Shown piece after piece: positions 1-58,609 of a DNA stretch of 64,000 bases; position 1 is the stretch's first letter, and each line of letters starts with the position of its first letter. Below the pieces are notes generated by a model that made no database searches, was not told the DNA's origin, and saw only the letters and a list, made by a program, of their open reading frames with translations. The position numbers and the translations under genes were made by a program. The stretch is from Schmidtea nova (lineage: Eukaryota), in NCBI GenBank assembly GCA_044892505.1, contig CM097882.1, positions 260,338,001 to 260,402,000 of the forward strand, read 5' to 3'.

Positions 1-175
1 TCAATATGCACATCGTTAATGGATGATCAATAACTAATTGAAATACAGGTAAGCACAAATTCTTATTAATAACATATGAGTGAATGATGTAGTATGAGGA
101 ATGGTGGGTATGATGGATGCATGTAGAGTTGACGACCCAGACTAGGCCAAAAACTAATTTAATACCGTAATTCAG

Positions 176-742
176 ATGATACCGAAAAGAAGATTGCGAC
201 TATTGCGAGCTCAGTCGCGGAAATCAACATTCTTAGATGTTAATGCAATCCCAGAAACAATTAGGAAGGCAGCGGAACGCCATCTCAGGGCGTGGAATCG
301 TAGTCACATAGATGCAAACGTGCGATCGGTGACATCCTCATTCAATACACGGATTCGGTGGGAAGGTGACCCATCGTGGCCGGCGTCTCCGAGCGTTCAG
401 ACACCGAGACAACAAAGATGATTCATACAGTTCGAGGACAAGCAGGCCAAACCCTGATGGGTACTTTCATTCAACTCCATGTCTGGTCTGGAATTCCGTC
501 AGTTGGGCTACAACTTGTTGGAACAACCGAGGTGTTTTCACGCCGGCGAGCTCCATCCTTATCTCAATGCTCCCGGAAATAGGGATATGAATCAACAGCA
601 GTGGAGAGAAGGAACGCGATTGTGGGAGGTGTTTACCTTCCGGGATGGACTCTGTTGGGATCCCTGTCCAGAAATCTATCAAGCCGATGGCAAGGGACTA
701 GCGAATCGAGCCTATGACCAGGAACTAGTCGAATTTCTGTGA
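176..742 (+). pseudogene. ORF A family (unknown protein), two internal TGA stops
   Basis: Track ORFs 176..421 and 479..742 share one frame. P*WVLSFNSMSGLEFRQLGYNLLEQPRCFHAGEL...LWEVFTFRDGLCWDPCPEIYQADG aligns with 38329-38676 PRWILSFSRIPANEFHQLDYILLGMPRRFYGSEL...IWEIFLYSSRLCWTPNPDLYQTNG. Confidence 0.75.
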
Positions 743-1012
743 AGATCTGCAACATTGTCATGCTAAACTGCTTGCATTTCGTAAATAATAAATAAATGTC
801 TTGTCAATTGTGTTGTTGATGGAATGCATGAGATGAAAAAGGGGTGTGATGCCGCTAAACTGATTGATGACTTTGGGAGTAGAACCTAGTTACAAAGAAA
901 CGGTCAATTATGATGAGACATAAAAAGAGGAAATGAGCCAGATAGGCGGAACCGTGGATGAATAGAACACACTAATCCACCCATATTTTTTAGATGTGTG
1001 CAGCGAAAACTC

Positions 1013-1549
1013 ATGACTACCGAGCAGAGGCAAAGGAATTCCTAAAGAGTCAAGGCTCTCGAAAGTCGGTTAAGGCAGTTGGATGCCGAGTACCAGTTGA
1101 TAAAGACGACTTGGTTCCACCCGGAGCGAGTAAAGAGCATCCAACAAGCCAGGTATCGTGCTGAATGAACGGCGGAAGAGCAGGCGCGAGAGACAGCAGC
1201 TGTCAAATTAGAGTTGGGCAATTACTTGCGGGCGTCTACCAAGGAGTTCACTGAGCAACAATTACGACCGCTCATACGAACCAGTACCTTCGATCGATGG
1301 GTACAGTCTACTAGCGTCTCGATGGGCGTGCAGACTGATATGAATTTAAGTCCGAGTTCAGACACCCCAGAAAGTGCTCAGAAAGCAGAAAGATTTAAGC
1401 GTACTAAACGAAGGAATCGGTTAGGCGCTAAAAGGCGGCGAGAAAGAAAGGAATATGCAGAACGGATCGGAATAGAAGTAGATCTTCTGAGCGGATTAAC
1501 CGAGAAGCAACTTCTGGCCGTCATCGACCCTACTGTGTTGTTAAATTGA
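1013..1549 (+). pseudogene. ORF B family (coiled-coil N-half, basic C-tail), internal TAA and TGA
   Basis: TTWFHPERVK...VKLELGNYLRASTKEFTEQQLRPLIRTSTFDRW matches the ORF B motif in 3469, 5499 and 39164; AATAAA at the stop. Confidence 0.75.
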
Positions 1550-2522
1550 ATAAATGTATTGTAGTTAAAATGTATCTTTACGAATGAATGTGGAACGAAT
1601 AATGATTTAACTAAAGGAAGGGGTGAGTATATTCAATTCATTTAAATGCCAAATGGACATGAGAAATCTAAATCAACCCTAGACTTAACTAATTTAAATA
1701 AATGTGAGGGACCGGAATAAAACCACACAAACCTTCTATCGGTAGTGGTGAACCCGTGAATAAATAAGGGAATAGTAACAGCAAGGTTGCTCACCTGCCT
1801 TATCATTTCACAACGTTGATACAGTTCCAACATGATGAGTAGTTAGGGATACATCATGGGTATCAGTGGGGGAAAGCGTTTATGTTGGCGAGGTTACCCT
1901 AACCAATAAAATCAAGTATAACCTCTGTTGTATATCTAACCTACAAACCAGCAGTAATAATAACAATAATAATATAATTTTCGCTTAATTATTTTTTTTT
2001 ACTTAATGTATTTTTCTAATTAAAGAAAATTATGTTTTCAATTAAAATATTTCTTTATTTGTTTTGGCATTTTAATGCCTTTTTTTAATGCCCGTCTATT
2101 TCATTTATTTATTAGGCCATTAAGTGCTTATTTATTTTCTTAATTGGCAGTTTAATGCCTTTCAATTGACAGTTAACTGCCTTTAATTTATGGAGAAAAT
2201 TTTCCCATTTAAAGGGAATTCCAAGTAATTTTTCTATTTTTTTAACTTTACTTTTAAAATTTAATTTGTAGAATTCGGTGATTTATTAAACTTTATTTTT
2301 GAAAATTAATTTATAGAATTCGATGATTTATTGAAGGATTTTTAAAACATTATTTAGATTTATGATGTTAAAGGTAATAATTTTAATTATATTAAATTTG
2401 AATAAATAATTTTTATGGTGATAATGCATATAATACTTGTAAGAATTAAAAACTAAAACTAACACTCTCGATTATCAATGATTTGAGCGAATACTAGAAT
2501 AAGGAAATTTGAGGGACCCTGT

Positions 2523-3023
2523 TTGTATGTTATATCTAGTATTATTTTCGTATTTTTAGTAACAAGCATGTTCCACACTGGATTACAATTTCGGGGTACC
2601 AGAGGAGAGTCGGCCACCTACAATATATCTATTGCAAATCTGGACGTTTACAATAATTATTTGGTTATGCATATGCCGCTCAAAAATATCCCAACGGAGC
2701 TGGCCCGTGAAATCCTCCATGAGCACCGAGAGGAATTCGAGAAAATCGGCGCTGTCCCTCCTTTTAATTTATTCTGAGACAGCCCGGCAGACATCATATG
2801 GCATGCAGCAAGGAGTGGCCGATCGACGTGGATCACCACTTCTGGCCTAATGCAACAAAATCCCACTGAAATTCCAGGGAGGTTCCAAATATATTATAAA
2901 GGCAAAATTCCCCAGGCAGAATTTCTGGGCCCGGGACGATTCGTGTTCGCTCCCGCGCCAACACCAAGCCCTACCGACTCTCCATTCAGCCCCTCGACGT
3001 TGAGTGAATCAGAAGAAAACTAG
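2523..3023 (+). pseudogene. ORF A family, one internal TGA at a conserved Trp position
   Basis: Frame continues past the stop at 2775-2777: PLKNIPTELAREI...PPFNLF*DSPADIIW...FQIYYKGKIPQAEF aligns with 27887 SLKELPPPILRTI...CPFSIWDTGRDRVLY...SRVIYWGHIPQGDL. Confidence 0.7.
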
Positions 3024-3468
3024 TGATGTGGAAATTATTGAGAACTAATTTTCGATTTGTTTTGTTTGTGTAGTTCGTTAAATTTTATGTTTAGTTGTTA
3101 TTTCATTGTTGTTGATAAATTAAGTGTTTAGTGTAGATATGTAAGATAATTACAGTAATTGGTAATTCACTATAAACACGAATGAATAACTTGGTAAAAC
3201 AATAAATAACAAAGATAGTAATCTAAAATAGGTATGAATAAACTTAGTTTTTGTAAAATAATAAATAAAGGAAAAAGTAGACTATACTAAACAGGCACAG
3301 GTTAGACGGGTCTGCCAAAGAAAGGCCGTGGAAGGTGATTGATAAAAAGTAGAGTAGTTTATACGAACCGAGTTGGAGTTGTGTAAGATTATCCGTATTA
3401 CTGTTAGATAGAATCATATAGTTAGAATTTTCTTTCATTACAAAGAAAGCTAGGGCTATAAACGAAAA

Positions 3469-3879
3469 ATGTCAGGACAGCTGAGGAGGAGGATTATCGA
3501 CATCGAGAATAGTTATTTTTCTCCTGCCGAGATGAAACAAGTAAATGACCGATTGCTGAGAGCGACACAAGTGATCCAATATCAGAAGAGAGAAATAGAC
3601 GCATTAAAAATCGAATTGAAAAATTGCCAATCGATCATAACTGAAAGATTTATAGATGGGATTCTGCGGGATTTGATTCGCCCAATAACGCTAGAAAAAT
3701 GGTTCTCCACACCGGACAAATCGGAAAATGCAGTCATAGAGGCGACGACGACAGCCCAGCCGCCAAAACGGAAGAGAAGAAAATCCCATTCGCAACGACG
3801 TCACCAAATGAAGCTGAAGTTGGAAACCGAAGCGAATAAAGTAACTATCGGGATGGACATCAACCGATCGAATCCGTGA
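3469..3879 (+). CDS. ORF B family protein, 136 aa, open
   Basis: SYFSPAEMK...LKIELKNCQSIITERFIDGILRDLIRPITLEKWF, basic tail PPKRKRRK. Confidence 0.65.
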   Translation: MSGQLRRRIIDIENSYFSPAEMKQVNDRLLRATQVIQYQKREIDALKIELKNCQSIITERFIDGILRDLIRPITLEKWFSTPDKSENAVIEATTTAQPPKRKRRKSHSQRRHQMKLKLETEANKVTIGMDINRSNP

Positions 3880-4501
3880 AAGTCTCAGATATCTTGTGTA
3901 TTAAAATTGTAATGTAATAAGGACGAATATATGTATAGTAATTCCGCGTTGTTTTCTTGAATAAGGTTCTCTGATAACTAAATAAACAATAACTATAGTT
4001 GTACATGACTAAAATGTAGGGAATAAAAGCCAATAAATGCTAAAAAGAGATCTACCAAAATGTAAACTTGCGATTTAGTGCAGAGAAGGGTTGAAATTAG
4101 AAACGGCCAGCGAACACCCGAAAGAGTGACCGGTGATGGGTGAGTGATAGTGTTGGGCCCACCAAGTGGTCTAAAACCAACAAAATAACAGTACAATTAA
4201 AACAACAAATGAAAATAATAAATACAAAAAACATAGAAAAATCGGAATTAAAAATCGGAATAAAATAATAAATAATAATAAATAAATTAACAGCAAAGAG
4301 AAAATTCGAAATTTACATTAGAACAAGCAGCGAGGGAGCCTGAAACAGAAAAATAAAGAATTTTATACAAGTAAAAGTGCAATTAATTGATTAATTACTT
4401 TGAAAATCAGGACCACCCAGCGAGAAACCTGAACCGGAAATAAAATAATATTTACAATAAAATAAAATAATAGACAGGTTTTGATGGACGGCCTGATCCT
4501 G

Positions 4502-4539
4502 ATTGGTCAATCTGACCAGCCAGATCAGTATAAATACCG
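4502..4539 (+). promoter_or_regulatory. CCAAT (ATTGG) plus TATA box TATAAATACCG inside E3
   Basis: Same TATAAATACCG at 46862 and 54824, TAAATACCGATC at 26723, and ATTGG...TATATAAG at 35972-36005, each upstream of family coding segments. Confidence 0.55.
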
Positions 4540-5025
4540 ATCCGAAAATCATAATTAGAGAAAATATTTTTGAGACTTAGACTTTGCTTAGAGCCTTAGT
4601 TTAAGCCTTTCTGTGAAAACATTTTACAGCATTTCGAGCGAAAATTCCGAACATTTATTTTGCGAGCAGAACATTAACTTAACGAATTGGAACAGTAAAT
4701 TTTATTTTGATTGATTAATTTATGTACCCATGATTTTATCATTATAATCTTATTCTATGTTTTGATTTTATCTTTATGCATTTAATTTATTTTAACTCAT
4801 GTGTATAGTTATGCTTCCTCGACTGTTCACGCGGCGAGGGAGCCAAAGTCGACGTCGTGGAGCCTAACGGTTTCACACGGCGGTTTCACCTTTTTATAAT
4901 TTTGTCACATTTCGATATTTAGGATGATTGCAATTTATGAATTTTATGATTATAGTTTTCAAATTTTGGTTGCACCTAGGATGAATCGGCACAAGTAGAG
5001 GGTATTATTATTATTAGGAAATACC

Positions 5026-5360
5026 ATGCGTCAGGAGGCATCCCGAAGGTCTAAGGTACCTTCCACCCAACATATTTTCGGCCATGCGAATTATTATTCC
5101 AAGGGACGAATAAGTTTATCAGTAAAGGGTCAAAAAATTTCACGATACGACAATGCGTCCAGGAGTCCCACACAACTAATACACTGGGACACATCCCCCG
5201 AAGCGAATTCAATAAATTGGGGCTTCGCTCATTTCTGCGCTCACGATCTTTCGGAAAGGAATATGGAATCGATCACCCAAAGTTCTCGCTGGAAAGACTA
5301 CGCCAATTAGCCATAAACAAGGAACTTCATATAAATTTTAAAAATATGAACGTTAAATAG
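5026..5360 (+). pseudogene. ORF A family, frameshifted
   Basis: GLRYLPPNIFSAMR (shifted frame) and TQLIHWDTSPEANSINW correspond to ORF A motifs LKxxP and (F/I)xWD. Confidence 0.5.
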
Positions 5361-5498
5361 TCGAATTGAATTTCCTTGATCATAATAAATTCTGTTAAAT
5401 GCGATTCATTTATTTTGTTTATTTTCCTCATGTTGCACAATAATTCATTTTAAATCGTGACTAAAATAAAGAATTTCAATTCATTAAAAATTTGCAGA

Positions 5499-6092
5499 AT
5501 GGATTCCGCATCACCACAGCAGAAAGAAATCGATAAATTATGGAGGATTCGAAGGGCTCAGGACAAAGAACTGGCCCAAACAAAAGTACAGTTGGCAAAA
5601 GCGGAGGCACAATTAGCTCATCTGCGTAAGAGTTGGTTTGCTCCTGTGCGGATGAAAGACCAGATAACTAAAACCGAGCGGGCTCAGAAAACAGCGGAAG
5701 ACTATAAAATGGAGTGGGAGGCAACTAAGATAGAGTTGCGGAAATGTCTCCACTCAGTGACGGCCTCGTATATAGAACGGGAACTAAGAGCGCAAATCAG
5801 ATCGGTGGCCTATCAGGGGTGGATCACCGAGGAAAAATCAGTGAGCTCAATCGGCACGGATGTCGAAGGCCTAATCGAGACTACTGTAGAAAACCCACAA
5901 CCAGTTACTGTGAGTGCTCCCTCAATCAGCGCATACCAAAAACGCAAGCGAATCGGCCAGAAGCTCAGAAGGCAGAGGAAACTCTTCGCCCAAAGATTAC
6001 AAGATCAGGTCGACAAGTTAGCCAATTTATCGGAAGCAGAACTGTTAGCCGAGATCTTTCCTCCAGAGGGGAATTTCGCCCACATGTTATGA
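5499..6092 (+). CDS. ORF B family protein, 197 aa, intact
   Basis: ATG at 5499 preceded by TTTGCAG. KSWFAPVRMK...TKIELRKCLHSVTASYIERELRAQIRSVAYQGW; basic tail QKRKRIGQKLRRQRK; AATAAA just downstream. Confidence 0.75.
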   Translation: MDSASPQQKEIDKLWRIRRAQDKELAQTKVQLAKAEAQLAHLRKSWFAPVRMKDQITKTERAQKTAEDYKMEWEATKIELRKCLHSVTASYIERELRAQIRSVAYQGWITEEKSVSSIGTDVEGLIETTVENPQPVTVSAPSISAYQKRKRIGQKLRRQRKLFAQRLQDQVDKLANLSEAELLAEIFPPEGNFAHML

Positions 6093-7276
6093 CAATAAAA
6101 TAGGCTATCATCCGTGTTGACATCTTTGTTATTTCTTAGTGTAAAGTTTTATTAATAATTAAAATAACTGAAACGTAATAATTGTACCCGACATAGGTTT
6201 TAAAGGCCACATAATTAATTCATAAAAAATGCTAACATTCGTAAATAGGTAAATAGAGTACAACATAGCTTTGTGAAAATAAACGATAAGTGCTGTAAAA
6301 TATAACAATAAATCTTTTGTGAAAGAGGCGTAAGTCCTTCTAACGGCAGCAATGGACCCGTAAACATAAATGAGGAGTAGTTCTAGCAATAGAGCTCACC
6401 TGCCCATCATTGTTTAACTCACCTAGCGCATCACCAACTTGGTTATCAAGGGAAATAATCGAGGGCGCTCGAGTGAGCAGAGTAAATATTTATGTATGAT
6501 CATGGATGGGGAATCCCTAGTCATCAGTAGCATTTTTTTAATCTAACCCCTCCGTGAACCCAGTAATAGTATGAATGAGACCTTCTATCGATTAAGCTAG
6601 AACCCGAACGATGCGACAAGTCAGGAGTAGTTCTTGTGAAGGAACTCACCTGCTGACTTGCGATCGGCTGTTATGCACATTAACAACGTGAATGAGTAGG
6701 GTAAATCACGGGTGCATGAACAGTAAAGCTTTTATGTGTGTGTTGGACCCTAGAGAGCAAGGAAGTGTATTTTAGTAATAGAAATTTCAGTGAGTTTAAA
6801 GAGTCAGGAAGTAAATTTGGGTTTTGATTTTGATTTTTCCACAACACACCAACAATATATTTAAAAATAATTATTTTTTGTTTTAGTTTTAATTAGTTAT
6901 TATTTAGTTATTTTTTTGTAATTATCATTATTACCATTATTACTTACATTATTACTATTATTTTTATTATTTCTAGAAGATTTAGTTTGCATTCAACATG
7001 AATGGTGGTGCTCCAAGGTAAAATACATTAATTTCAAGTTTATTTAGAAATGTAACCTAATATTTTAGTTTATTATAATAATACACATTGATATGTTTTT
7101 GACTGAGGATTTTTGGTAATAATTAATTTACACACATTTTATGATTTTAGACGTTTCTGGAAATTTTCTTTTCTGTTTCTACCGACATTTGCGAAAATTT
7201 TCCCAATTTCGTCATTGGTTTTAAACGAATTGGTCTATCACTCTAATTAGCTATTCACATTGGTAATAATATATAG

Positions 7277-12046: not shown

Positions 12047-13106
12047 TACTATTATTTATTTTGATTTTATATAATGCGAATTAATATTTAATTTTTCATA
12101 ATACCAATTAAACTAGCTTCGCTATTTAATTATCAATCAATGATGAGATCACTCGGACTTTTGGTTCCTATTGTTCTGATCATTCATATAATTATTAGAA
12201 TGAAAATGAAAGAGACCCTCATTACTGAATAAACATATACTATTCCAATCATAGCATCCTATGTCATTTACAGATCTCATAGAATCGAATTCTTAGCTAA
12301 ACTTTGAGCCAAGACTCTTGCTTGCGGTATGAATGCGGTGAACACAAAGATTGGCAGAGTTAAGAAACTCTGTCCATGGCAAATATTGTGTTTTCGGCAA
12401 TATATCGAAGATAGTTTAGTGATAATGAGTCCAAATTTATTCCGTACTCCGTTGTTTTGTTAAGTAATATGTATTTTGTCAAGATTGAATTCGTGGAATG
12501 CTTTGATAAATTCATTGCTTTGGATTTATGCGAATATTGTTTATGAACCCATGAGTATTGATGATTTCTGATAACAGGAAACACGGAAAATGATGGGATA
12601 TATTGTCGATGGCGTCACATCTATTAGCCCTACGTTGGTTAAACTCGAGAAGAACATGGAGAATTGTAATCTATATATCATCCTGGTCCGTGAATACATT
12701 GTCAATATGTTATATACTGAATGAATCTATTTTAAACATTTTCTTTTGATATTACATATATATTTGTTGAATAACCGTTTTATAGGAAACATACTACGAT
12801 TGGGATCAAGCAAACTGGTTTTATGATTGCATTGCCATCCAAATAAATACGCTAGAATTAAAAACAGTTGTTTTCTAGACTCACAGTTGAAGAGGCCATC
12901 TCAGTGATAAATAAGAGACTTTTCCATTTCGAAGAGAACAATAAGAAATTGATGACAAAAAACCATGTGTTAGAACGATGATTGGAGAAGTTTGACAAAA
13001 GTTGTAGTTATGAAATGTGCCAATATTATAATAATAATATTGTTTTAATATTAACAATTAAAAAAACAGTTGAGCGTTGTTTTTAAATATAAATATAATT
13101 TGTATT

Positions 13107-14315
13107 ATGAGTGAACAGACTTTTACTGGCGACCACGCAAAAGTGGAAACAATTCAAGCAGTTACAAGACAACAACGGAAACTCATCTTAGAGTCACTTC
13201 CGAAACAAGCACGAGATATCCTGAATTTTAATGTCAGGAAATTCAATGGAAGAAATACAGCAGAAGCAGAACTGTGGATGAAAGATATCGAAGATTGGCT
13301 TATGATGAACGAGTTGAGTCTAGTAAGCATTTTTGATTTATTATTGTCAGAAGAAGCTGGTATATTATGAAAGGATTATAAAATTCCAAATATTACCGAT
13401 AAAGAGGCAAAAGAATGGTTCAGTGACACATTCACAAAGAAAAAGTCGATCACTGATAGAATATGTGATTTAGCAAGAGTTGAACAAGAAAAAAATGAAA
13501 GATTTGCAACTTTTGAAATTAGAGTAAAAAAATTACTTGATGATATCTTCGATTGTGGATTATCCAGAGAAGAAATTGTGAGAAATATTGTTACCAATAG
13601 GGTCCACAATGAACGTTTAAAGGAGAATTTTGTTTCTAATGCCAAAATGTCAAGAGAAGAAATGCGAACATTAGCAAAGGTATTTGAATCAAACGATATC
13701 ACGGAAAGAAACGTGCGTATTGAAGAAATTCAAGCAGTGGATAGAAGGTCATATGCAAATGCGGTTCGAGAACGAAATACTCAGTGGGAGCATAAAAACA
13801 AACCAAAAGCAATAGTTCAAAATAACAGAGTATTTGAACCAAACCATCAGCGCAATATAACATATCAAGATAAACAATTTAATAGTAGTAAACCTATATC
13901 AGAAGATCAGAGAGACAGAAAAACGAATGAATATGAAGAAAGAAGACAATTACCAACCGTATCGATGAAGCATACTGCAAGGAGACTTTATAATAGATGT
14001 TGTGGATTGCCAGAGCCGAAAGAAGAGAAGTTGAAACCAGGCCAGTGTTTCTGTTGCGGGGAGAGCAATCATTTACGATTTCAGTGTCCTTTGAAAGATA
14101 GATGCTTGATTTGTGGCAAAACCGGACACACGTTTAGAGACTGCAATGTGATTAAGAAGAATTTCGAAAGGAAACAACACCAAGTATATTGTATACACGA
14201 TGAAGAACAAGATGATTCAGAAATAATTAATGAACCCCTTTTACATGATGTAGAGTATCAAAAAAACCAACGCGACCCTGTCGTACACATTTCGTCGGTG
14301 GGGTCGAGTCAATAG
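13107..14315 (+). CDS. gag: G1 gag (one premature TGA at 13368; two CCHC zinc knuckles)
   Basis: CFCCGESNHLRFQC and CLICGKTGHTFRDC. The G2 paralog has TGG at the stop position. Confidence 0.85.
14261..14306 (+). promoter_or_regulatory. -1 ribosomal frameshift signal (A AAA AAC plus hairpin)
   Basis: Heptamer is in gag phase; stem CGACCC(14273-78)/GGGTCG(14301-06) is extendable by G-U pairs; the -1 frame is open into pol. Confidence 0.75.
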
Positions 14316-14341
14316 GACAATCAAGAAATCGAAATGGAGTT

Positions 14342-17300
14342 ATGAAGGATGTGATGTATATGAAGGAAGATGGTAGGAATTGGAGTAGAATTATTCTAAA
14401 TGAAGTAGAACTTGATATGTTGTGGGATTCTGGTGCGTCAATTAGCGTAATAAGTGAAGATTATTGGAAACGTATTGGTTGTCCACCATTGATAAGTAGC
14501 AAAATAGTTTTGAGTGGTGTATTTTCGAAAGAAAATGAAATGCCATTAGGAAGTATAAAGGTTAATGCGAAATGGAACAAAAAGTCTAAAAATCTTGATA
14601 TTGTTGTTGTGAAGAAGATATGTCCAGATTTCATAGGCGGTGTTGACACCATGAAGCAGTTCGGTCTAGAATTGAAAGAGGTAAATAATATTGAAGCTTC
14701 GTTAACAAAATTAACATTCACAAATGAAGAGAGAAGAGATAAGGCTCTACAATATATTAAATGCGGGAATAATTCATCACTAGGTAATATTATTTCAGAC
14801 TTTAGTGATATTTTCATGGCATCGCGATTCGATCTTGGACATACACGTTTAATAGAACACGAAATAAAAACAACAGGACCACCGATATTACAGAATCCAC
14901 GCAGACAACCAATGCACTTAGAAACGAAAATTGACGAATTAGTATCAAACTTATTGGAAGCAGGCGTTATTAGAAGATGCCAGAGTCCTTGGAATTCACC
15001 TTTAGTGATTGTTGGAAAGAAGGATGGTTCGATCCGCATGTGTTTGGATTTTCGAAGATTGAATTCAGTAACGGAAAAATTTTCGTTTCCAATGCCCGAT
15101 ATGCAGTTATTACTGGATTGTTTAAGTAAATCAAAGATATTTACAGCAATTGATCTAGGACAAGCGTACTACCAAGTCGAATTGCAGAAGGATTCACAAA
15201 ATAAGACGGCGTTTAGTACTAAGGAAGGACAATTCTGTTTTAATCGTCTACCATTTGGGTTATCGACGGCACCAGCAACTTTTCAAAGATTAATGCATAA
15301 AATACTGGAAGGGCTTATTTTCAAAGGAGTTGTTGTATATCTGGATGATATACTAGTTTACGCAGAAAATCAAAGTGATCACGATAAACTGTTGTTGGAG
15401 GTATTTACACGGATAAGAAACACAGGCTTGAGAATTAACCCGGAAAAGTGCTCGTTCAATAAGGCGGAAATCAACTTTATTGGCCATACCGTCAGTGGTG
15501 AAGGTGTTCAGACAAATAAAACAAAAATAAGCGAAATTGAAAATGCTGCAGTACCAGAATGTGTATCACAACTCAGGGCGTTTTTAGGACTCACAAACTA
15601 TTACCGTCGATTTATAAAAAATTATGCAAAGATTGCAGCACCGTTATACGCAGCAACATCAGGTGGTGAAAAGAAAGTTATATGGTCAGAAGAATGTAAC
15701 ATTAGTTTTAATAACTTAAAGAAGGCGTTATGTGAAGCACCGATTTTAGAATTTCCGAGATCAGATCGAAAGTTTATCATTGATACAGATGCAAGTTTCG
15801 GAGCTGTAGGAGCAGTATTAAGCCAGATTAATGAAGAAGGCAGGGAAGTCGTCATAGCATACGCATCAAGACATCTGACGACTCACGAAATGGGTTATTG
15901 TGTAACAAGAAAAGAATTATTAGCACTCCATGAGTTCATTGTATATTTCAAACAGTATTTATATGGTAAAGAATTCGTCGCAAGAACCGATCACAAAGCT
16001 TTAACGTTCATGAAAAACACAAAGAAACCAATTAGCCCTCAATTTCAAACTTGGATGGCTAATTTATCGGAGTATAATTTCGAGTTACAGTACAGAAAAG
16101 GAGAAGATCATGGAAATGCTGATGGCTTATCTAGAATAAAAAATAACTTGTGCAGTCAATGCCAAACGAAACATAATGACGCAAAAGAAAAAAAATCGAA
16201 GATAAGATATATAAATAGTTTACAAGAAAATCCAAATATTTTAGAAATTATCAGAGTTAAGCAAATGGAAGACGCAAATTTAAGAGAACTTATAAAATAT
16301 TTGAAAGATGAGATTGGTCAGGTTCCAAACTTTGTGGAACAAAGTTATTTTTTCAAACATATAAAAGAACTGCAGATAAACGAAGGTTTGTTATCAATTG
16401 AAATATCTAACAAAATAGTTGTTATAGTTCCAGAGAATTACACGGAAACTTTGGTTAATTTTATGCATAAAGAATTATGTCATTTAGGTAGCAAGAAAAC
16501 GGGAAGTTATATGAAAGATTTTTTTTATTGGCCTAATATGAATCAGGATATCAAAGAGATTATCAATAAATGCCAAATTTGTGCCAAGAGGAAAATAGAA
16601 CAAGGAAGAACAAAGGAGATTTTATTACCAAGAACAGGGGAACGATTCCTTCAGCAGCTCGTTGTTGACGTTGCGTATATGGAAAAGACGAAAGGGAATA
16701 AAAAATATGTGATTGTAATTATAGATAGATTTAGTAAACTTGTGAGTTTAACGGCAACTTCAAAACAAGACGAAAACACAATCGTTAATGTAATTTTGAA
16801 TAACTGGATATACCGATATGGAAAGCCAGAAAGCATACTGACAGATAGAGGTCGGGTTTTTGAAGGAACAATAATTCGAGAATGGATGAACAAGTTTGGG
16901 ATAAAGCAAGAGTTTAGTTCACCTTACCAACATCAATCTAATGGTTTGGCAGAACGTACTATAAGAACAGTTAGAGATATGATGAGTACATCTTTGAAAG
17001 GAGAACGTAAAGAAAATAATTGGGCCGAGATATTACCGAGAATTGAATTTTGTCTCAATGCGACGAAACAAAGTACAACAAATTTCTCATCTTTTGAAAT
17101 AGTCTACGGTAGGAAAATTAATTTGTTTTCTAGTCCAGGATATGTACAGCAAATGAAAGATGAGGTACTACATACGACAAAATCAAATTTAGATAAAGCC
17201 GCTACTTCTATGCAAGAAAGAGACATAAACAAACGAGGAACAAGGCTTTTCAAGGTGGGAGAGAGAGTATTAGTAAGAATTGAGCCAAACAAACGGAAAA

Positions 17301-17429
17301 AAATGGCGAACAGTACGAAGGACCTTTTGAAATTTTAAAATTCTTGTCACCAAGACAAGTAGCACTACAATTCCAAAACTCAGTAAAGACGAGACGAATC
17401 GAATGGTTGAAGAGATGGAAATCAAATTG
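14342..17429 (+). CDS. pol: G1 pol (PR-RT-RNaseH-IN)
   Basis: LWDSGASIS, YLDDIL, DTDAS, HKELCH...CQIC, TDRG, SNGLAER. A 1-nt loss in an A-run near 17295 shifts the GPF tail (QYEGPFEIL...IEWLKRWKSN*). Confidence 0.95.
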
Positions 17430-18661
17430 AAGAGGGGAAAGTTATGAAATGTGCCAATATTATAATAATAATATTGTTTTAATATTAACAATTAAAAAAA
17501 CAGTTGAGCGTTGTTTTTAAATATAAATATAATTTGTATTATGAGTGAACAGACTTTTACTGTTGTCATTCAATAGAGGCAGTGCGGTTTTGTTAGAATA
17601 ATATGACGAAACCATATAACCAAATTCAACTGCTCATGAAACAGAGTGAAAATGACTCAATCAAACGGGTGCATTGCAACTCACAATCCGGGAAATGGAT
17701 AGTGAGATTGACCAGCTGAGGATATAAAATTGGCTTACAGCAGATATATGCCATCTCAACTCCACGCAATTGTCAGAATTATTTCTCAAAGAGAAGAAGT
17801 ACATACTACAACAATGACAAAGAGGTAAAAGCTCGACAAGACAGAGCAAGTGCGCAATAAACACCGACTCCTTGGTCATTTAAAATTAATCTTATATTAC
17901 TAATTTTTGTTTTCTTGCGCATGTCTGACAACTAAGTGAATGATGATATATTGAATGTAATAATAGGTTAAATTTTAATTTGTTTTATTTTATTAGATAT
18001 TTCTAATTTTTATTATTACAATCTTATTTAAAAATAATCTTAAGTAATGAATTAATAGTAAATAGTGTTACAATAATTAAATAATTAGAATCATGAGATA
18101 AGCGAGGTTTTCCGAAAGATTAAAATTAACCATTAAAAGAGATAACGATATTAGTAGTTCGAATAAGAATAAATATACGAGTAAATGAGTGTATATTGTT
18201 AACAGAAATTTATATATTTTTTTATAGAAATGGAAAGAGCTCGGGCAAATAAATGACAAACTAACAAGATTTGAGGCAAATAACGAAAGACTGAAAATTT
18301 TGAATTCTATTGTATTTCTTTTTTTAATGTTTATTTTTGTTTATTTTAATGTTCTCGTGCGTACTCGTTATTAAACTAATAAATATTCTATTAATTTCAT
18401 TATCTTGGTTAATATCGAAATTAAATTTAGAATTTTTAGATTTTACTCATGGGTTTTGAGCCAGAGTATTTGACATGTATTATTTAAATAAATTCTCAAG
18501 GAATGTAAAGTTCCTATAATTAGAAGAAGAAACAATGGAACCAAAAGAATGAATGGACCTGCATTTCTCTTGGCGGCCCTTGAACCCATTGCGATATTTT
18601 GTCAATTATAGTTCTGGAAAGCGCGTTCACTTTGCAAGTATCTACCCTTTTGTTACATTAA

Positions 18662-18836
18662 CAACGTTGGTTTGCAACGTTGGTTTGCAACGTTGGTTTG
18701 CAACGTTGGTTTGCAACGTTGGTTTGCAACGTTGGTTTGCAACGTTGGTTTGCAACGTTGGTTTGCAACGTTGGTTTGCAACGTTGGTTTGCAACGTTGG
18801 TTTGCAACGTTGGTTTGTAACGTTGGTTTGCAACTG
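18662..18836. repeat. 13-bp minisatellite (GCAACGTTGGTTT) x ~13 inside a module C copy
   Basis: Direct read; left flank 18560-18665 aligns with 58390-58510. Confidence 0.9.
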
Positions 18837-27886: not shown

Positions 27887-28366
27887 TTGTCTAAAACAGA
27901 TGGAAAAGATGTCAATCGAAACATTCGTAGCATCTCAAAGGAGGGCGCCACTTCAATCGAATTCTCGACAACAAAAGCCATCAAAAGTCTAAAGGAACTA
28001 CCACCTCCGATTTTACGAACCATTAATGCTCAGATGTATAAGTGGAGACGAGCCTTCCGAGAAAAATGTCCATTCTCCATCTGGGATACCGGACGAGACC
28101 GGGTGTTGTACCAAGGGGGCCCGGGATGTCCAAATTCGGCCAATCAATGCTACTCGCCGAAATTTGGACGTATGATCGTAATAAATAATGGCCCCGATCA
28201 GAAACCTTCAAGAGTGATTTATTGGGGGCACATCCCACAGGGCGACCTCGCCGATTTAGGGCTAAACCTTTTCACGTCGCCACGTTCTCTTGGGAAAGGT
28301 CATGAGAAACACATGCCCGATTTCTCTCTGACGAGGATCCGACAAGCACCGACAAGCACCGATTAA
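27887..28366 (+). CDS. ORF A family protein (>=159 aa open)
   Basis: Carries all three ORF A motifs (LKELP, FSIWD, HIPQGDL); family promoter motif at 26723. Confidence 0.6.
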   Translation: MSKTDGKDVNRNIRSISKEGATSIEFSTTKAIKSLKELPPPILRTINAQMYKWRRAFREKCPFSIWDTGRDRVLYQGGPGCPNSANQCYSPKFGRMIVINNGPDQKPSRVIYWGHIPQGDLADLGLNLFTSPRSLGKGHEKHMPDFSLTRIRQAPTSTD

Positions 28367-33110: not shown

Positions 33111-33834
33111 CCATTTGTCGGTGTAGTTTAAGCATCTAGATTTTTATTTTTCAATCATCTATTCTTAAATAATAATGTTAAAATGTTAAAATAGTACTAC
33201 TACGTTATCAAAATTGCATGCAAATTAATCATGTCTTACTACACAAATGTTTCTACATAGATGAATCTAAGGTCTCGAAGGCTCGGATCGAATGGTAGAA
33301 GGTCTGGATGTTTTTATTGATTCGTATAACACAATAGCGACGAGAATGGAGAGAAATATTGTTATACTAATGATAGTTATTAATAATATCACACATAATT
33401 TCTTTGTCATTGCTTAATAGTGTTGGGCCAGCCGAAATTAGTTGGAAACTACAACTAAATAAAATAATAAAGAAAGAAATTGAATTAGTTAATAATAAAT
33501 TACCCGACATTAGTAAGGAATCAAGAAATAAAATAAAATAACACGAGAAATAATTAGGGCAAGATTTTCCTATAGGCTAACTAGGCTTCATCCTAGGGCC
33601 TCATGATCATAGCAAAATTAAAATGTACATCTAGGTATTAATTAAAATATTGAAGGAAAGTTCCAACTTTTTTGATTATTGTGTAACCCTTCAAGTTCAA
33701 CAATTTAACAACAATTCAACAACATTTCTTAATTCAAATTACTATTTTATTTTTATTTATAAATAATAAATAATTAACTTTTTTAATGCGCAAAAATTAA
33801 TAATTCAAATATTTTATTAGAGATTCTAATCAAA

Positions 33835-34073
33835 GAATGAATAAAAGATTTGAAAGTGGCGCTTGAAAAAGCAAAAAGATGCTTCAATAATTAGAGATAA
33901 AGAAGCTAGCATCGATAACTACTTAAATGCATGTTCCAACTAGTGCCGTGTTTTTTGCTTTGTTTGTAAACTTTTTCCAAACACTGCATCTTATGCAACA
34001 GCATTAACTTCTGAAGAGTTTAATGATTGGAAAAACCCAGCTATCATTCAATCTCATGAAAATTCGGAAAATC
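33835..34073 (+). mobile_element. hAT N-terminal TTF-type zinc-finger remnant
   Basis: MNKRFESGA*KSKK and FNDWKNPAIIQSHENSENH; ends at the 34078 element terminus. Confidence 0.55.
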
Positions 34074-34077
34074 ATAG

Positions 34078-35700
34078 TGTTGGGTTGTTGATCGTCAATA
34101 TGACCTTGACGTTGCTACGGCTCACATCAACAACTCAACACATAAAACATTACATTAACCATCTTGTTGCCCGTCACAATGTAACGTTGGTAATGCAACA
34201 AATGGGTGGGTATTCGCAATCAGTGAGCGTCGAAAATTCGAAATTATGATTGACCGAATATCTCCTGGGTCCAAGGCTACCGACAGAAGATTTAATGCCA
34301 ATTTTGTCCCTTCCTACATGATTTATCTATAAGCATTCAATAATGTTTTAATCGGAATTTCCAAATAAATAATCTACATCAATATAAGTTTATTATTGCA
34401 TCAAAATAACCCATTTTCCCACATCAAAATATCAACAATTCATGCAAGGATCCATTTACGATGCACATAGCACAAGAACAAACAGAATGGAATCAATAAA
34501 ATCATACGTACAAGGAGTATTAAAGTTCTTTGGGTTTTCGAGATGCTTTTGTACCTTACTGTTACTGAATTTTCGATTTTTCCGATCAAAATCTAAAGCG
34601 TAATAAAATCAATTATTTCAATCAGTTTCTACACATTACATTATCAAAGAAAACAAGCATAATTGCATTTTTAGTTAATTCCCAAGCTCATACGCAAACA
34701 TATCATCACAACTCAATTCGGGGATCAATTATTCCTTTAGAAAATAACTATATTTGGGACTATTCAATTGCCATTATTTAGACCCGAATTTTTATTATTC
34801 TCGTGATTTCTTCAAATTATTCTGTTTTAATATTTAAAATTTAAGTACATTTCATTTATATACTAGTCATATTGTCTATCTTGTTTTAAAACTTATATTT
34901 AAATTTTTTCAAAATTTAATGTTAAGAATTTAAATCATCGCCGAGGCCTTAGTAACGACTTTGATTCAGTAAAACTTTCCTCTTACAGTTTTTAGTCATC
35001 GAATTTTGGGGTTTTTAACATGATTTAATTTTTTAATATCAATTTAAAATTTTTCTATCAAATTAAATTAAACAAGAACTCAACAAGAAAATTTTGTTAT
35101 TATTGAAATATTTTATAATAATCTTGTTTAAAATTGCGATAATTTTAGTTTCTTATCGATCTACACTTGCAATCCAATTGGCTGTTTTATTTTATATGGT
35201 TTTTCAATATAATATTGATTTTAAATGTAATTCAGATTTTTGAATTTCCCATTAACTATCAGGTAAATTTGATGATTTTTCATTTTGTTTGTTTTATTCT
35301 TGAGTTTACAGTTAGCATAATCTATAACCAATTCGAACCATTCACTAGCAACTGTATCAGGCTCAACTATTAATGCTTTTTACGATTTCTCATTAATAGT
35401 AAGTTACTTAAGTATTCCAATTTTTTATGCTTCTATCTCTCTCCCAGTGAACATCTATACCATCATTCGTCTGCAACCTCCTTACCCTGAAGACTCCTGG
35501 ATTTATCAATTTCGTGAATTCGCGTTGGAGATTTTTTTTCGCAATTAACTATCTATCGATTCTGGAATTTTATTATTTGTAAATCCTACAATGCAAGAAA
35601 ATTCGCTCATCAATCAGAAAGATTTCCCACCGATCGAGGAGACCTGAGTTCAACACTCGCACTACACTTCATCTGGACTCTGATTTGCAAATAAAAAAAT
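34078..35700 (-). mobile_element. Unclassified TG...CA element copy (minus strand, right end plus ORF A remnant)
   Basis: 34078-34325 is a close inverted match of 58380-58609, with patchy homology to ~35030/57950. Ends CCCAACA. DRWEIFLIDERIF at ~35600-35635 matches the ORF A WE(I/V)F motif. Confidence 0.75.
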
Positions 35701-35739
35701 TGTTTTGTTGTCTCGGATTTTTAGCAAATTTTAATTTAA

Positions 35740-37700: not shown

Positions 37701-38089
37701 CAAGTAGTATGATGTAGAATGCACAAATAAATGAATGAGTAATTTCTAATAATTAACGACGATTGTATGTTGGAAAAATCGACGGCACTGAATAAAAGCA
37801 ACAATACAATCGTAAATCAATTTTTGCGCTCGATTGATGAGGCGGATTTAATTTCTAATCTACACAGCCGTGTCTTACCTCAACGGACAGTCTGTAGCGG
37901 AACAACGGGTGAGAAAGAAAATTGATCCGATTTTCCCATGTACTGAGATTTTCGTGCCATGCCAACAGCTGTCGACAGTCGACTTGTGAATAAAAATTCT
38001 AGAAATCATTTCTATAAAAGTCGTCATTAACAAACTCGTGTTTTAGAAAGAAGAATCCAATTCGAAAATCCTCGCTAGAAGACCGGATC

Positions 38090-38676
38090 ATGAATATCTA
38101 TAAAACTACTATGTGTACAAGTGAACTTGCACGTTACCAGGAAACCGAAGCCATACGTCCAACCGTTTATTATCAAAACGGAAGGATCAACCGACCAGGA
38201 ATCTGGGCTCTGAAGCACGCCCCTTCCGACGTTCTTTATGACATTCACCTCCAGGCGAAAAACGGAGAAATGAATTCAAAAGGAAAGCACATTTCGGAAT
38301 GTGGTAAAATCTCTATGAAGAGCTACATTTGAAGGAGGGCCTTTATGGCCTGAAACTCATAGTATTAATATGCCACGATGACAAAACAATACCACGCTGG
38401 ATCCTTTCTTTCTCTCGGATCCCAGCCAATGAATTTCACCAATTAGACTACATCCTCCTCGGTATGCCTAGGCGATTCTATGGCAGTGAACTGCAAGAGT
38501 TCTGCAATCTACCACTCCCAATGCCAGAAGATTGGCGCAATTCATCCGAGTGAGTCCAGAGCGTACAGATATGGGAGATTTTTCTGTACAGTTCACGACT
38601 CTGTTGGACCCCCAATCCAGACTTATACCAGACAAACGGGACCCTGAAACAGGAATCCGAAATATATCAGGAATGA
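38090..38676 (+). pseudogene. ORF A family, one frameshift and one stop
   Basis: Clear homolog of 176-742 (see that alignment); ALKHAP motif. Confidence 0.75.
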
Positions 38677-39163
38677 TCTCTTCAGAACCACAGTCCAGCG
38701 AGTCGAGATTAACAAGTCTACATCCTGTCGCCAAATCAAAACATGAATTACTTTACGATATTGTCCAAACTTTATATGTTCTATCCTGATATTTGATTTT
38801 TATTTTTAATTAAATACATTTGGTTTTAGTTTGTGTGCGGAATTTTGATTGATGTCTGAATGGAATTGTATGAATGAGGGAGGTCTGAGGGTGAAAGCGA
38901 CTTACCCGAAACATGTATGTCAGAACGATATGATGAGTGAAATTTCCGGCGGCGAAAGTTGGTATAAAGGCACATTGCCTGAATCGATATCAGATAATTA
39001 AGTTGTTCCCAGGAAGGAAAATAAGCTAAGGGGAAAGTAATGCGCCAGTAGCGTAAATGTTGCCACTTTAAAAGTGCTATGTAATTTCCAAAAATTTCCA
39101 AATAGATCATATTAAACAAACGATCGATTCAACTAACAAGCGAAACTACAGAGACACATCACA

Positions 39164-39412
39164 TTGTTAGAAGGGAAAATAAACAGGCAGGCGCTCGAAA
39201 TCGAGGAGTTAAGGCAAACGTGGTTTAGCCCGGCCGCAATGAAAGAGGTGCTAAAGAGTAAAGATAGAACGAAACGAGCCTTCGGCGAACAGACCGCGAA
39301 TTTGTCGGCCACTAAATTGGAATTATACCGCTGCCTGAGATCGATCTCAGACGACTTTATAACCAGATATCTGAAAGATCAATACGTTCGAACGTTGGAC
39401 GCCGTCACGTAA
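39164..39412 (+). pseudogene. ORF B family, C-terminally truncated
   Basis: QTWFSPAAMK...TKLELYRCLRSISDDFITRYLKDQ. Confidence 0.7.
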
Positions 39413-54318: not shown

Positions 54319-55241
54319 TGCTGGGCCAAAACTGCAAATTGTTTAAATGAAGCGGTAACACAACAAGTAGAGAGCGCGCAAGACTCTAATCTAAAGTCCT
54401 TTAATCAAAACATCAAGGAAAAAACAAAATGGTTAAAAGAAGCATGTCTAAAAAGCTAGAATAGACAAAAAACACATCGAATATGCACGTGGAGAACGCA
54501 TTCATGATATTAAACCTCGGTTGTGGAAATTTAGCATGTTTGTAAAAGGAAGATTACGATTATATCTTAAAAATTCGGAAAAAAATAAAAGAAAATAATT
54601 TTGATCGAAATTGCAACAAATTAAATCAAATTAGAATAAACTTTGATTCAAAAGTAAAATTTTGGATTAAAAAGAAATTATTTAAAGTTTTATGAAAATT
54701 TGATGTAAAATTATTAATTTAGTTTTGCGGAAAATTGTTGAAATTAATTTCGAGAAAATAAGAAACTCCTTCTAGAACAATTTGTTTTAATACCTCAATG
54801 GAAATAAAAATGCAGAATATTTATATAAATACCGCCATCAAAATGGAGAGAATAAGCAGAATGCTATTTTGCAAAAGATTTGCGGAGGAATTTTGTTGCT
54901 AAAAATTTTGAGGTTTTTAGCAGGGAAATTTTAACAAAGAATCTCTTACTACTAATATACCAGTGTGACTCTACCAGAATATTACGAAAGAAGATTATTT
55001 GTGATCGTGAATCGAATTATTCGTAAGAAACTTGATTTTGATTCCTAATTATAAAGGCCCGCGAAATCATGCCCTCGCTACCCGGCCTAGGTATTTTTCC
55101 TTATTTTAACCTTATTTTATATGTTAGTATATGATATTTTATGTATTCTTTTATGAAAATTATAATTTTTATATTTAAACTTTTATTAAATTTCGTCACA
55201 TTTTCTCATAAACTAATATCATTTTATTGTTATTTATCATA

Positions 55242-55272
<31 letters not shown>

Positions 55273-58200
55273 TTATATTTTTATATATATTTATATTTTT
55301 TTATGTATTTCATTAAAACCATTTCCATATCCTCTGACATCCGTTCAGGCCTCGTGCCGAACTGATGGAAGTAGCCTGAGCGGATCGTTGGTTCGATTTG
55401 TAATCGATCAGTCCATTTTTCCAACTCAAGGTGACACGCCCAAACATCCATGATCACTTCATCCCAACTGGGGAACAGTGGCTTGGCCAAGGGCAAGGTT
55501 TTTCATATTAAGGATCATCAATTTATATTAATGTATTTTTATCTGAATTATATTTTACAACATACAGTAAATTAAAATTTTATATTTTGATGAAAATCAA
55601 CGTTAATTCGTCCAATATTACCTTTATTTCCATCAAACTTATTAGTATAAAACACATAGCTCGTTATTCGCCTTCGCATTCGTAAAAACCTTTTTATCTC
55701 CTCAGAACTTATGAGCCAAATGGAGGTTGAAATTATGAAAATTGTTAAAAACAGATGCTCAAAGATCAATATAATTATTTAGATCACGACCGAAGAAGTG
55801 AATAATTATCGATTTATAAAATATCAAACCTCACAGAATTATAAAATTATAAAATTACAAAAATTTGTTCAAAAACAGCTCAAGTTAAAAAATGTATTAT
55901 TATATTAAAAATTTTATCATTTTAAAAATTTGAAATTTGAAATTTCGTAGGAAAATTTACAATCCTTAAAATATAAAAATTAGAATTCCAAAATTTATAT
56001 TATAAAAATTTGAAATTTTATTATTAAATAACTCTTATAAATTTATAAATTTAAAATCTGTAGAAGAAGTTGTAAAATTATTATTATTATCTTAATATTT
56101 TATATATAAATATATATTATTTTATAAAATACCCCCCGCGATATCACAAGATCATAATACATCCCTATTTGCAAAACCTTACATCCATTTCATTCATTAC
56201 TAACATCCATATGTAATACCATACAAAAATTCATTCAAACATCAACACACATACTATATCGTTTCACTCAATAGTACCTATCTGCATCAAAACCAATAAG
56301 ATACACACCCAAAAAATTCATTTAACAACATGTGTCTGCATCATACATCCAGATATACTGCACAAGCACCCACTTCATCTCGTCGGACAATTAATATTTC
56401 ACACAACATACCATCTCACATACCATCACATACAATCATAACAATAGGATATTGTCTCAAGTCTATAATAGTATACATACACACCAATTTACACTCACTA
56501 CATCTCACCTCACCAAACCACAACAAAACACAACAACCCATTTGGAAAATTTCATTTTAAATCACAACACCCATATTCACAATTAATCAAATCTATAATC
56601 ACATTTGTACTCATCATTTCACTCATTAAGATCTAAATAGTATAATGCTATATAGTATAATGCCTTCAGAAAAACCAATACCAAAATTCTAGCTCATCTA
56701 TAATTGAGATCTAGGTAGTCATTGCACTTATTGACATTCTATTGCCTTAATCTGTTTTTTATACNNNNNNNNNNNNNNNNNNNNNNNNNNNNNNNNNNNN
56801 NNNNNNNNNNNNNNNNNNNNNNNNNNNNNNNNNNNNNNNNNNNNNNNNNNNNNNNNNNNNNNNNNNNNNNNNNNNNNNNNNNNNNNNNNNNNNNNTATTA
56901 AGATCATTCTAGTGTGCTGCCATACTTAGGAAAGTTGATTAATGAGGTGATAACTGCTAATTTCGCAACAATTACTTCGTAAATTACCCAATTCTAACCC
57001 TATCCCTTAACCTCACTGTAAACTCATCCATATCATAGTTCCTGTCCCATTACATTGAACTTGTCAACAATTAATGAGGGAAGTATTGACATCCAACTTT
57101 ATGTAATTGGAAATTCCAACTCAATATACCAACAGGCAAATGAATACTACTATCCTGAATATTATAAATTATGGAAAAATTATGGAAAAACGAAAGACAC
57201 AAAACCATATAAAATATGTATTATTTTCATTAAAAAACGAGCACAATCAATTACACAACAATTTTTGCTTTACCAGTAGCAACTCCCAAAATTGCTTGTC
57301 TGTGGAATTATTTCCGAAATAATAGTCTGGCGTGGATTTTCTGAAGTAGACCACCAAGTATTTTTACAGCATAATAATAATTTCCATCATTTGACAATGA
57401 CTGAGAAAAATTCCAACTCAGATTTATTACGTAGATTGATGACCCGTTTGTTTTTCTGTTGGGGGTAGTTGAAGTTGAGCTGAATTATATTAAATGAAGA
57501 TAAAGCTTAAATTGGTTGATTCACCTTACGTAGTAACCGAATAAACCTGCCCAAAATGATGAAGGAAATTGAGAATAAGCTGTTTTTTCTAAACAATAGG
57601 AGAGATAAATAAGGCGAGGAATCCAAAGATGACTTACCCTTAATAATTTTTCCAGTTGAAATTTGGAAAATCTACATCGTAGAAATAGCTGGATAAAACA
57701 ACTAATCAATAAGTGACTATTAGAAATTAAATCGCATATTAGAAATTAGGGAATAGAAATTAATAATTCTTGAATTTCATCTATAGAGTTATTAAAAAGT
57801 TAAAATTCCCGGTTTAAAAGGGTAAAGGAATGAGGGAAAACCAAGTTTTATTATATAAAATTAAAAACATTAAATCCTTGCATTGACATATATGAAAATT
57901 TCAAGACCTAACGACCCAAGTTATTTCTGTTGATGTTAAGTATAACCGTTGCCGTTGTCAAGGCCTCGGCGAGAATTCAAATGTTATAATTATCGGATTT
58001 TTAATAAAAATGTAATTAAAATCCTAAAGCAAGATAGACATTAGGTATAGGGATAAGTAAAATTTAGTTAAATTTACTGACACAAAAATATAAAAATTTA
58101 AAAAATCTGGAAAATAATAAAAGTTTAGTTAAAATGAACAGTAGAAATCGAATACCCCGAATACATGTGTTGATAAAAGATTATTCAATCCCTGAATTGA

Positions 58201-58609
58201 GTTTGTGATGATATGTTTGAGCACGAGCTTGCGAAAAAAATGAATGTGAGGAAACTCCTGTGTTTTGAGACAATACTGTGTATACTGATTGATTGGGCCA
58301 AATTAAAAGATTTTTATCGATAAAATTATTTCATTTTGCTAATGTAAATTTGATATCTGCAGTTAAATTGTCGAAAGAGGGACAAAATGGGCATTAAACC
58401 TATCGGTAGCCCTTAGACCCAGGAGATATTCGGTCAATCATAGTTTCGAATTTTCGACGCTCACTGATTGCGAATACCCACCAATTTGTTGCATTACCAA
58501 CGTTACATTGTGACGGGCAACAAAATGGTTATTCTAATGTTTTATGTGTTGAGTTGTTTATGTGAGCCATAGCAACGTCAAGGTCGTATTGACGATCAAC
58601 AACCCACCA
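54319..58609 (+). mobile_element. Unclassified TG...CA element copy (4291 bp incl. gap) inserted in G3 pol
   Basis: GGGT|TGCTGGGCC ... CAACCCACCA|GGAT; removing it and one 4-bp copy restores ALLRIY*NAFAKHEYDLG. Contains the TATAAATACCG promoter and module C. Confidence 0.75.

Follow-up and report, generated by a model that had tools for sequence, protein, structure and literature searches.

Burro, or GYPSM1 (Jurka 2007; Grohme et al. 2018, as described in PMC6431247), comprises giant gypsy-like retrotransposons of dugesiid planarians that are bounded by long terminal repeats (LTRs). According to the review's account, these elements exceed 30 kb, with an internal region of up to 25 kb, one frame of about 5,000 amino acids (aa), an Env lying in frame between Gag and Pol, and ankyrin, MATH, and BIR parts; the review's text on Burro is silent on LTR genes (PMC6431247). 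Solo LTRs of flatworm gypsy elements and ta-TRIM are described as giving short transcripts that run from the U3/R to the R/U5 limit (PMC4558846). Here we describe E3, a repeat in a stretch of 64,000 nucleotides (nt) of the Schmidtea nova genome (assembly GCA_044892505.1, contig CM097882.1, positions 260,338,001 to 260,402,000 of the forward strand); the whole stretch is called the window. Our results indicate that E3 is very probably a solo LTR that carries real genes, and that its relatives are the paired LTRs of Burro-type gypsy elements.

A reading made from the letters alone (the sequence-only reading) had placed E3 between two ATAG copies. This was confirmed, and the 4-bp target-site duplication (TSD) is real, because relatives (L122, L123) of the LTR that E3 interrupts hold a single ATAG at the empty site. 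The termini had been given as TG(T/C)TGGG...CCCA(A/C)CA. E3 does start with TGTTGGG, but it ends in CCCAGTA, and its best relatives end in CCCAGCA. The A-rich 5' part, the CCAAT/TATA boxes, open reading frame (ORF) B, and module C are all present as described, and no reverse transcriptase (RT), integrase, or transposase was found inside E3.

The search for E3 relatives covered the assembly (1.25 Gb, 283 contigs) and gave at least 61 matches (40 scored of 4,850 candidates), the best of them 89–94% identical. The matches of these best relatives break at E3 position 1008–1012; therefore E3 is short of about 720–750 bp. Of ORF A, which had been reported as a gene of E3, only the 3' remnant was left after this deletion. 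In the three subfamilies compared, only one part of the LTR is more conserved than its first 400 nt. Folding of window positions 4805–4900 gave a z of −3.73, and the double-hairpin motif of this part occurred in three of the seven LTRs scanned. The features of E3 and of the other copies in the window are collected in Table 1.

Table 1. Coordinates of E3, its parts, and other LTR copies in the window
Feature	Position	Strand	Remarks
E3	4151..6565	+	Very probable solo LTR (family 1) of a Burro-type giant gypsy element; length 2,415 bp; internal deletion; last letters TA in place of CA
Left 4-bp TSD, ATAG	4147..4150	+	
Right 4-bp TSD, ATAG	6566..6569	+	
U3-like A-rich part	4151..4560	+	Right edge placed from the TATA position
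CCAAT (ATTGG) box and TATA box, predicted promoter	4501..4534	+	
GC-rich double hairpin	4813..4895	+	Present in family 1 LTRs A, E3, and E3 relative
Deletion junction	5158..5162	+	About 720–750 bp gone relative to nearest copies; start and first two thirds of ORF A removed
ORF A, 3' remnant	5184..5342	+	Codons 106–158 of a 159-aa homologue; 53% identity to P0001; profile iE 1.5e-17
ORF B	5499..6092	+	197 aa, unbroken; CAG one base before ATG; AATAAA just past stop
Module C, conserved structured RNA element at LTR 3' end	6328..6563	+	
Family 2 LTR, 5'-truncated	2505..6854	+	Interrupted by E3; end sequence as in the 3,572-bp LTRs of element K
Family 2 LTR parts	ORF A 2568–3020; ORF B 3469–3879; module C 6577–6784	+	
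Family 4 solo LTR, 3' part	1..1953	+	3,205 bp in total; begins 1,252 nt before the window; TSD GTAA
Family 4 LTR parts	ORF A 188–538; ORF B 1058–1531; module C ~1732–1900	+	ORF A weak; ORF B with one stop
Family 3 LTR	54319..58609	+	Flanks GGGT/GGAT (one mismatch); both ends and inner parts match the LTRs of element F3 (5,506 bp)
Second family 3 LTR, 3' part	34078..35224	-	
ORF A homologue of another LTR remnant	27911..28363	+	52% identity to P0001; profile iE 6e-49
ORF B fragment of another LTR remnant	39152..39382	+	Profile iE 8.8e-15

An 18-nt motif of the LTR 3' end had 841 exact matches in the genome, and the reversed control had none. In 117 of the 841 the motif runs on into the primer-site sequence TAAATTTGGGGG. 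The primer site, 18 nt long and starting 5 nt behind the LTR, is complementary to the 3' end of a genomic tRNA-Pro(TGG) followed by CCA. Five same-strand pairs of end motifs, 26.5–27.1 kb apart, were chosen among 100 places listed of the 841, and all five (A–E) were complete elements of 29.6–30.3 kb, with LTRs of 3.1–3.2 kb that are 99.4–99.97% identical. Element G, which has E3-type ends and LTRs 97.7% identical, shows the same gene order in 28.9 kb, so that the six family 1 elements span 28.9–30.3 kb; the internal region of A measures 23.4 kb. Pairs around gag-pol, one of the checks proposed for E3, were thus found.

E3 positions 1–752 and 2178–2413 match both LTRs of elements A–E at 70–86% DNA identity, and the ends of E3 are 84–89% identical to the LTRs of element G. 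Judged by these DNA identities and by ORF B (68% aa), E3 is a sister subfamily of the LTRs of elements A–E. We also found a 90%-identical E3 relative directly behind the last two internal 3' ORFs of a Burro element. An exact 4-bp TSD was present in all eight paired elements and in nine of the 13 single copies whose two ends could both be recognised (the examination covered 16 loci); three of the remaining single copies have one TSD mismatch, and one has internal sequence as its left flank. ATAG recurs as the TSD of E3, K, L042, and L049.

The internal region encodes a single unbroken frame of 5,492 aa in A and 5,488 aa in B, which is broken by stops or frameshifts in C, D, and E. Pfam searches of this frame in element A revealed, in order, zf-CCHC, a Monjiviricetes-type fusion glycoprotein (PF24664, E 1.7e-70), RVP, RVT_1, RNase H, integrase, and ankyrin. 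Its Gag part holds three CCHC motifs, and the Env-like PF24664 protein lies upstream of RVP, in frame between Gag and protease. A separate RING ORF precedes the big frame; behind it come a TRAF-like RING-zf-MATH ORF (MATH_2 E 6.5e-21), a coiled-coil ORF, and an ORF with a hydrophobic stretch. The non-enzymatic parts of the polyprotein had no match among PDB sequences (phmmer). Pfam and phmmer searches of element A found no BIR, BCL2, SUMO-like, or dUTPase-like part, and several of the published Burro ones came from HHpred. Family 3 gave a BIR match (E 2.9e-15) and a weak SUMO-like one (E 0.006). The element type, assigned by the published description, is the Burro architecture, all detectable structural features being found except the BIR, BCL2, SUMO-like, and dUTPase-like parts in A.

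E3 had been proposed as a member of an unrecognised mobile element family. This does not hold, given that the same repeats flank complete Burro-type elements of 29–30 kb; the suggestions of very long solo LTRs with genes of their own, made by a gypsy integrase, and of giant flatworm gypsy elements as relatives, were supported. Solo LTRs form by recombination between LTRs, and E3 likely arose in this way from the two LTRs of one inserted element. In accord with this, the window has no primer-site motif, and E3, flanked by its own TSD, is a single repeat in self-comparison. The element kind is therefore already known, and the LTR-borne selected genes and the RNA structure remain the unusual part.

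The other proposal was that each E3-like unit moves singly, as an independent but non-autonomous passenger of a MITE-, TRIM-, or Ginger-like kind. Single copies with their own TSD are indeed in the majority: about 600 of the 841 ends would be solo LTRs if 5' and 3' LTRs are equal in number. E3-type starts also form a tandem array at C1:449.07–449.09 Mb. However, the same repeats pair around complete elements with a primer site and pol, the single copies lack a primer site, their terminal inverted similarity is about 7 bp, and ORF B is broken in most E3-type loci (counts below). We consider singly moving passengers hardly credible, and for E3 the proposal is unsupported. Three further candidates were rejected. 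A Ginger or other DNA transposon was dismissed on the inverted ends of the repeat, which are imperfect and about 7 bp long, and on its occurrence as paired direct repeats around gag-pol; a TRIM or LARD, on the single repeat of E3, which has no second LTR with an internal part; and a pair at C1:436.83/436.86 Mb as an LTR pair, on a segmental duplication that includes the flanks. Elements I and J each consist of a 5' part that is truncated or interrupted.

Some side observations concern these elements. The tandem array (C1:449071567–449093205) holds 14 E3-type LTR starts at a spacing of about 1.7 kb, an LTR fragment turned satellite. The tRNA-Pro(TGG) genes form a large tandem array on C1 from 459.61 Mb (L160) with a 308-bp period, and 1,106 pattern matches occur genome-wide. 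Just before the 3' LTR of A, G, K, and F3 there is a conserved GC-rich or G-rich motif (three families) that differs from a plain run of purines. With this motif in place of a simple polypurine tract, plus-strand priming may be atypical.

The fetched loci yielded 49 unbroken frames of ORF B and 24 of ORF A, and the near-full-length ones (38 and 18) were analysed. Codon-model omega for ORF B was 0.16 in family 1 (22 copies) and 0.20 in family 2 (16 copies); for ORF A it was 0.20 (13 copies) and 0.19 (5 copies), respectively. Pairwise omega had medians of 0.05–0.23 at dS >0.3, with 52–65% of the differences in third positions, and in the shifted-frame control the medians exceeded 1 in all but one bin, apart from one at 0.99. 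The choice of unbroken copies favours open frames, not the codon-position bias. These codon patterns indicate purifying selection on both LTR genes. It acted in the replicating lineage, and the genes decay in old solo copies.

The selected genes could instead be domesticated, with solo copies working for the host. E3 does have an unbroken ORF B, and Burro1 IAP (inhibitor of apoptosis protein) is reported as pro-regenerative (PMC13465017, citing Lee et al. 2026). Against this, ORF B is interrupted by a stop or a frame break in 12 of the 16 old E3-type loci and ORF A is mostly gone from E3, whereas 145 of the 150 best matches to the ORF B of the young, largely paired subfamily have no stop. Domestication is thus very unlikely, and selection within the replicating element is the reading that we keep.

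ORF B is predicted to be a coiled coil with a conserved arginine-rich helix. Its model has long helices, a disordered linker, and a basic helix, with a predicted helix at residues 141–174 (pTM 0.30), and an Arg/Lys-rich motif of 15 residues contains 9–11 R/K in all 22 family 1 copies and 6–8 in all 16 family 2 copies. The ORF A model is a small mixed alpha/beta domain (pLDDT 69) with no fold match (Foldseek E >0.2; VIA best Z 3.1). Neither ORF had a Pfam family at a useful E, and no homologue of either was found in a set of 5.8 billion proteins, in which proteins of near length were searched. The ORF A profile had no match among 1.84 billion representatives, and the Atlas matches of ORF A and ORF B were all below 0.9.

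Module C was aligned from 30 copies less than 90% alike, picked from 101. The predicted fold consists of two multi-stem hairpins, and two-sided changes occur in 17 of the 27 predicted pairs. In the alignment 95.8% of the cells pair, compared with 36–44% in slid controls. One-sided U-A/U-G changes favour the sense strand. In the first hairpin, a G-G opposition and a 1x3 loop are kept between covarying stems. Single-sequence folding was weak (z −1.7 and −1.1), and the support comes from covariation. Module C was unmatched in Rfam at E up to 1 (L081:1700–7400) and at the gathering score (four sources), although it may have a relative all the same.

The layout of motifs suggests how such an LTR might be expressed. 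A CCAAT and a TATA box, about 20–30 nt apart, lie at LTR position 340–410 in families 1, 2, and 4, and both ORFs are downstream of this predicted promoter. A splice-acceptor-like YAG is found within 3 nt of the ATG in all 22 family 1 copies of ORF B and in nine of the 13 of ORF A. Counted over A, K, M, and F3, it stands near the ATG in 14 of 24 ORFs versus 17 of 260 non-coding ATGs, a count that leaves out two F3 ORFs, two K ORFs, and most M ORFs. AATAAA occurs within 60 nt past ORF B in 18 of the 22 family 1 copies, and four family 1 LTRs have a GT donor-like motif about 170–190 nt past the TATA box. Contigs from four runs of unspecified kind showed no GT..AG joint among those viewed, a result that speaks neither for nor against expression.

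We propose that transcription starts about 410 nt into the LTR, which would place ORF A, ORF B, and module C in a long R/U5 part of about 2.7 kb and make them the first on the element RNA. Splicing would join a short leader to the acceptor beside each ATG, and the AATAAA behind ORF B would end short mRNAs made from the LTR only. This long-R layout, drawn from the arrangement of motifs, is somewhat favoured. ORF B may then act in the nucleus on the element's own RNA, for read-through or export of the 27-kb genomic RNA, with module C as a binding signal or a packaging/priming signal. Such a Rev/Tat-like role of ORF B is argued by analogy and is a tentative idea.

A different placement of the same genes would put ORF A and ORF B in U3. 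They would then be made from the 3' LTR by a spliced subgenomic RNA, like nef or MMTV sag, with the start near module C. ORF A and ORF B do continue the internal chain of 3' accessory ORFs, with a like acceptor layout, and a strong-stop DNA of about 2.7 kb, which the long-R layout entails, would be very long. But the sole CCAAT/TATA pair found is at LTR 340–410, in three families and within a conserved 400-nt block, and we judge the U3 placement distinctly improbable.

The processing step could also differ from the long-R proposal. The accessory ORFs, including the LTR pair, may be an operon-like chain resolved by spliced-leader trans-splicing, which flatworms use, and not by cis-splicing from a leader exon. 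The ORFs of element A are about 75–185 nt apart, most have a YAG before the ATG, and AATAAA comes soon past the previous stop. The GT donor-like motif kept in four family 1 LTRs fits cis-splicing instead. Trans-splicing seems to us unlikely, with a better claim than the U3 placement.

Several findings weigh against parts of the overall reading of E3. Among the loci fetched, the 90% subfamily to which E3 itself belongs had no complete element. Family 3 is without CCAAT/TATA at the LTR position given above, and its LTR ORF misses the ORF B profile (bits below shuffles). The YAG counts mix homologous, hence non-independent ORFs, and in family 2 the acceptor pattern is weak (ORF B 2 of 16 within 3 nt and 11 of 16 within 8 nt; one of the six ORFs of K). 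AATAAA is common throughout these AT-rich LTRs, and the predicted start site, splicing, and poly(A) site are each read from motifs. The 3' side of the module C core (CTCACCTG) belonged to the selection pattern; the covariation comes largely from differences among few families, and kinship inflates the counts. The sole pointer to a Rev/Tat-like role is the Arg-rich motif, which is possibly a plain nuclear localisation signal.

Taken as a whole, the Burro-type LTR might be a self-contained early transcription unit, with a short U3 and a multi-kilobase R that carries two selected regulatory genes. In it, ORF B would bind module C, as a structured RNA of an undescribed kind, and switch from short LTR-only mRNAs to the 27-kb RNA in a Rev/Tat-like circuit. 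This is a doubtful proposition at present. If true, such a circuit would have evolved independently in an invertebrate gypsy lineage, and the solo LTRs, which number in the hundreds, would all be two-gene cassettes ready for use.

At least four diverged LTR families account for the parts that recur in the window. The sequence-only reading had listed such recurrences; copies of families 2, 3, and 4 and remnants of ORF A and ORF B were found among them, but 33421 is a terminal motif only and 35700–37800 matched no fetched locus. Further matches to the family 3 LTR are at 46729–47531, 18565–18668, and 63755–63918 (minus strand). The reading also took the system to be old and diversified. The diverged families agree with this, but some contain young copies (LTR pairs 99.4–100% identical).

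Family 2 is represented by element K, which has paired LTRs of 3,572 bp (99.9% identical) with an ORF A of 167 aa and an ORF B of 144 aa. In the aligned parts, these proteins are 25% (ORF A) and 36% (ORF B) identical to those of family 1; the RT-RNase H of the two families is 91% identical. The big frame of K (C2:64.520–64.545 Mb, L152–L154) is without the RT-integrase part, and the element sits in a family 1 polyprotein gene. In family 3, element F3 (C2 ~410.536–410.563 Mb; L105–L107, L159) is 27.2 kb long, with LTRs 100% identical over 5,506 bp and the TSD ATAT. RT and integrase are missing from it, but some ten accessory ORFs (RING, TRAF-like, BIR-RING IAP, ankyrin) are retained; F3 is a non-autonomous element that carries apoptosis/ubiquitin genes and moved very recently. 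Insertions of one Burro-type LTR or element into another recur, as in window positions 2505–6854 and 33421–39470 and in elements K and F3.

Other sequences in the window are of different kinds. An ordinary gypsy element with identical 123-bp direct repeats and a 998-aa pol ORF lies at 13006–17562, with a decayed relative at 40533–44923. By eye from the ORF list, 21463–26076 holds frameshifted ORFs resembling a Helitron Rep-helicase. Judged in the same way, ORF fragments at 49631–51843 resemble a Polinton/Maverick-type ATPase, a TBP-like protein, and DNA polymerase B, and a 427-aa ORF at 61051–62334 (minus strand) resembles a SENP/Ulp-type SUMO protease.

LTRs are usually taken as non-coding. 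Here, two genes are kept by selection even though the proteins of the families are 25–36% identical. They and module C are candidate parts for working out the expression, export, and priming of a 27-kb retroelement RNA that has about eight separate ORFs. There is also an annotation risk, namely that hundreds of solo LTRs will be taken for orphan genes of the host; effects of Burro proteins on planarian stem cells have been reported. In the literature searched, with the primary Burro papers outside the search, we found no description of LTR genes for Burro, and an earlier one may exist.

Compared with Burro as the review describes it, the elements studied here share the size of about 30 kb, the internal region of about 23 kb, the giant frame with Gag, three CCHC motifs, Env, protease, RT-RNase H-integrase, and ankyrin, and the MATH, RING, and (in family 3) BIR parts (PMC6431247). 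The frame has 5,492 aa here versus the 4,873 and 5,140 published for Burro, and MATH is found here behind the big frame, in a TRAF-like ORF that is complete, unlike the Burro of that account (PMC6431247). The described solo LTRs of flatworm gypsy elements and ta-TRIM resemble E3 in being solo LTRs with 4-bp TSDs; proteins are not reported for them in that account, whereas the LTRs here measure 3.1–5.5 kb and carry selected ORFs (PMC4558846). The Ogre/Tat elements of plants are also alike in their multi-kilobase LTRs and extra ORFs of unknown function, but as reviewed they have these ORFs in the internal region and no in-frame Env (PMC6431247).

The comparison with complex retroviruses is one of analogy, and no sequence or fold likeness was found, the fold search covering the ORF A model. 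In complex retroviruses, Rev/Rex/Rem or Tat act with RNA elements of their own, and HIV nef and MMTV sag are LTR-overlapping genes in U3, upstream of the start site. The LTRs described here would be like them in having protein genes in the terminal repeat and a small basic protein with an Arg-rich helix near a structured RNA that has a purine mismatch and an asymmetric loop. Unlike nef and sag, the LTR genes of these elements lie downstream of the predicted promoter.

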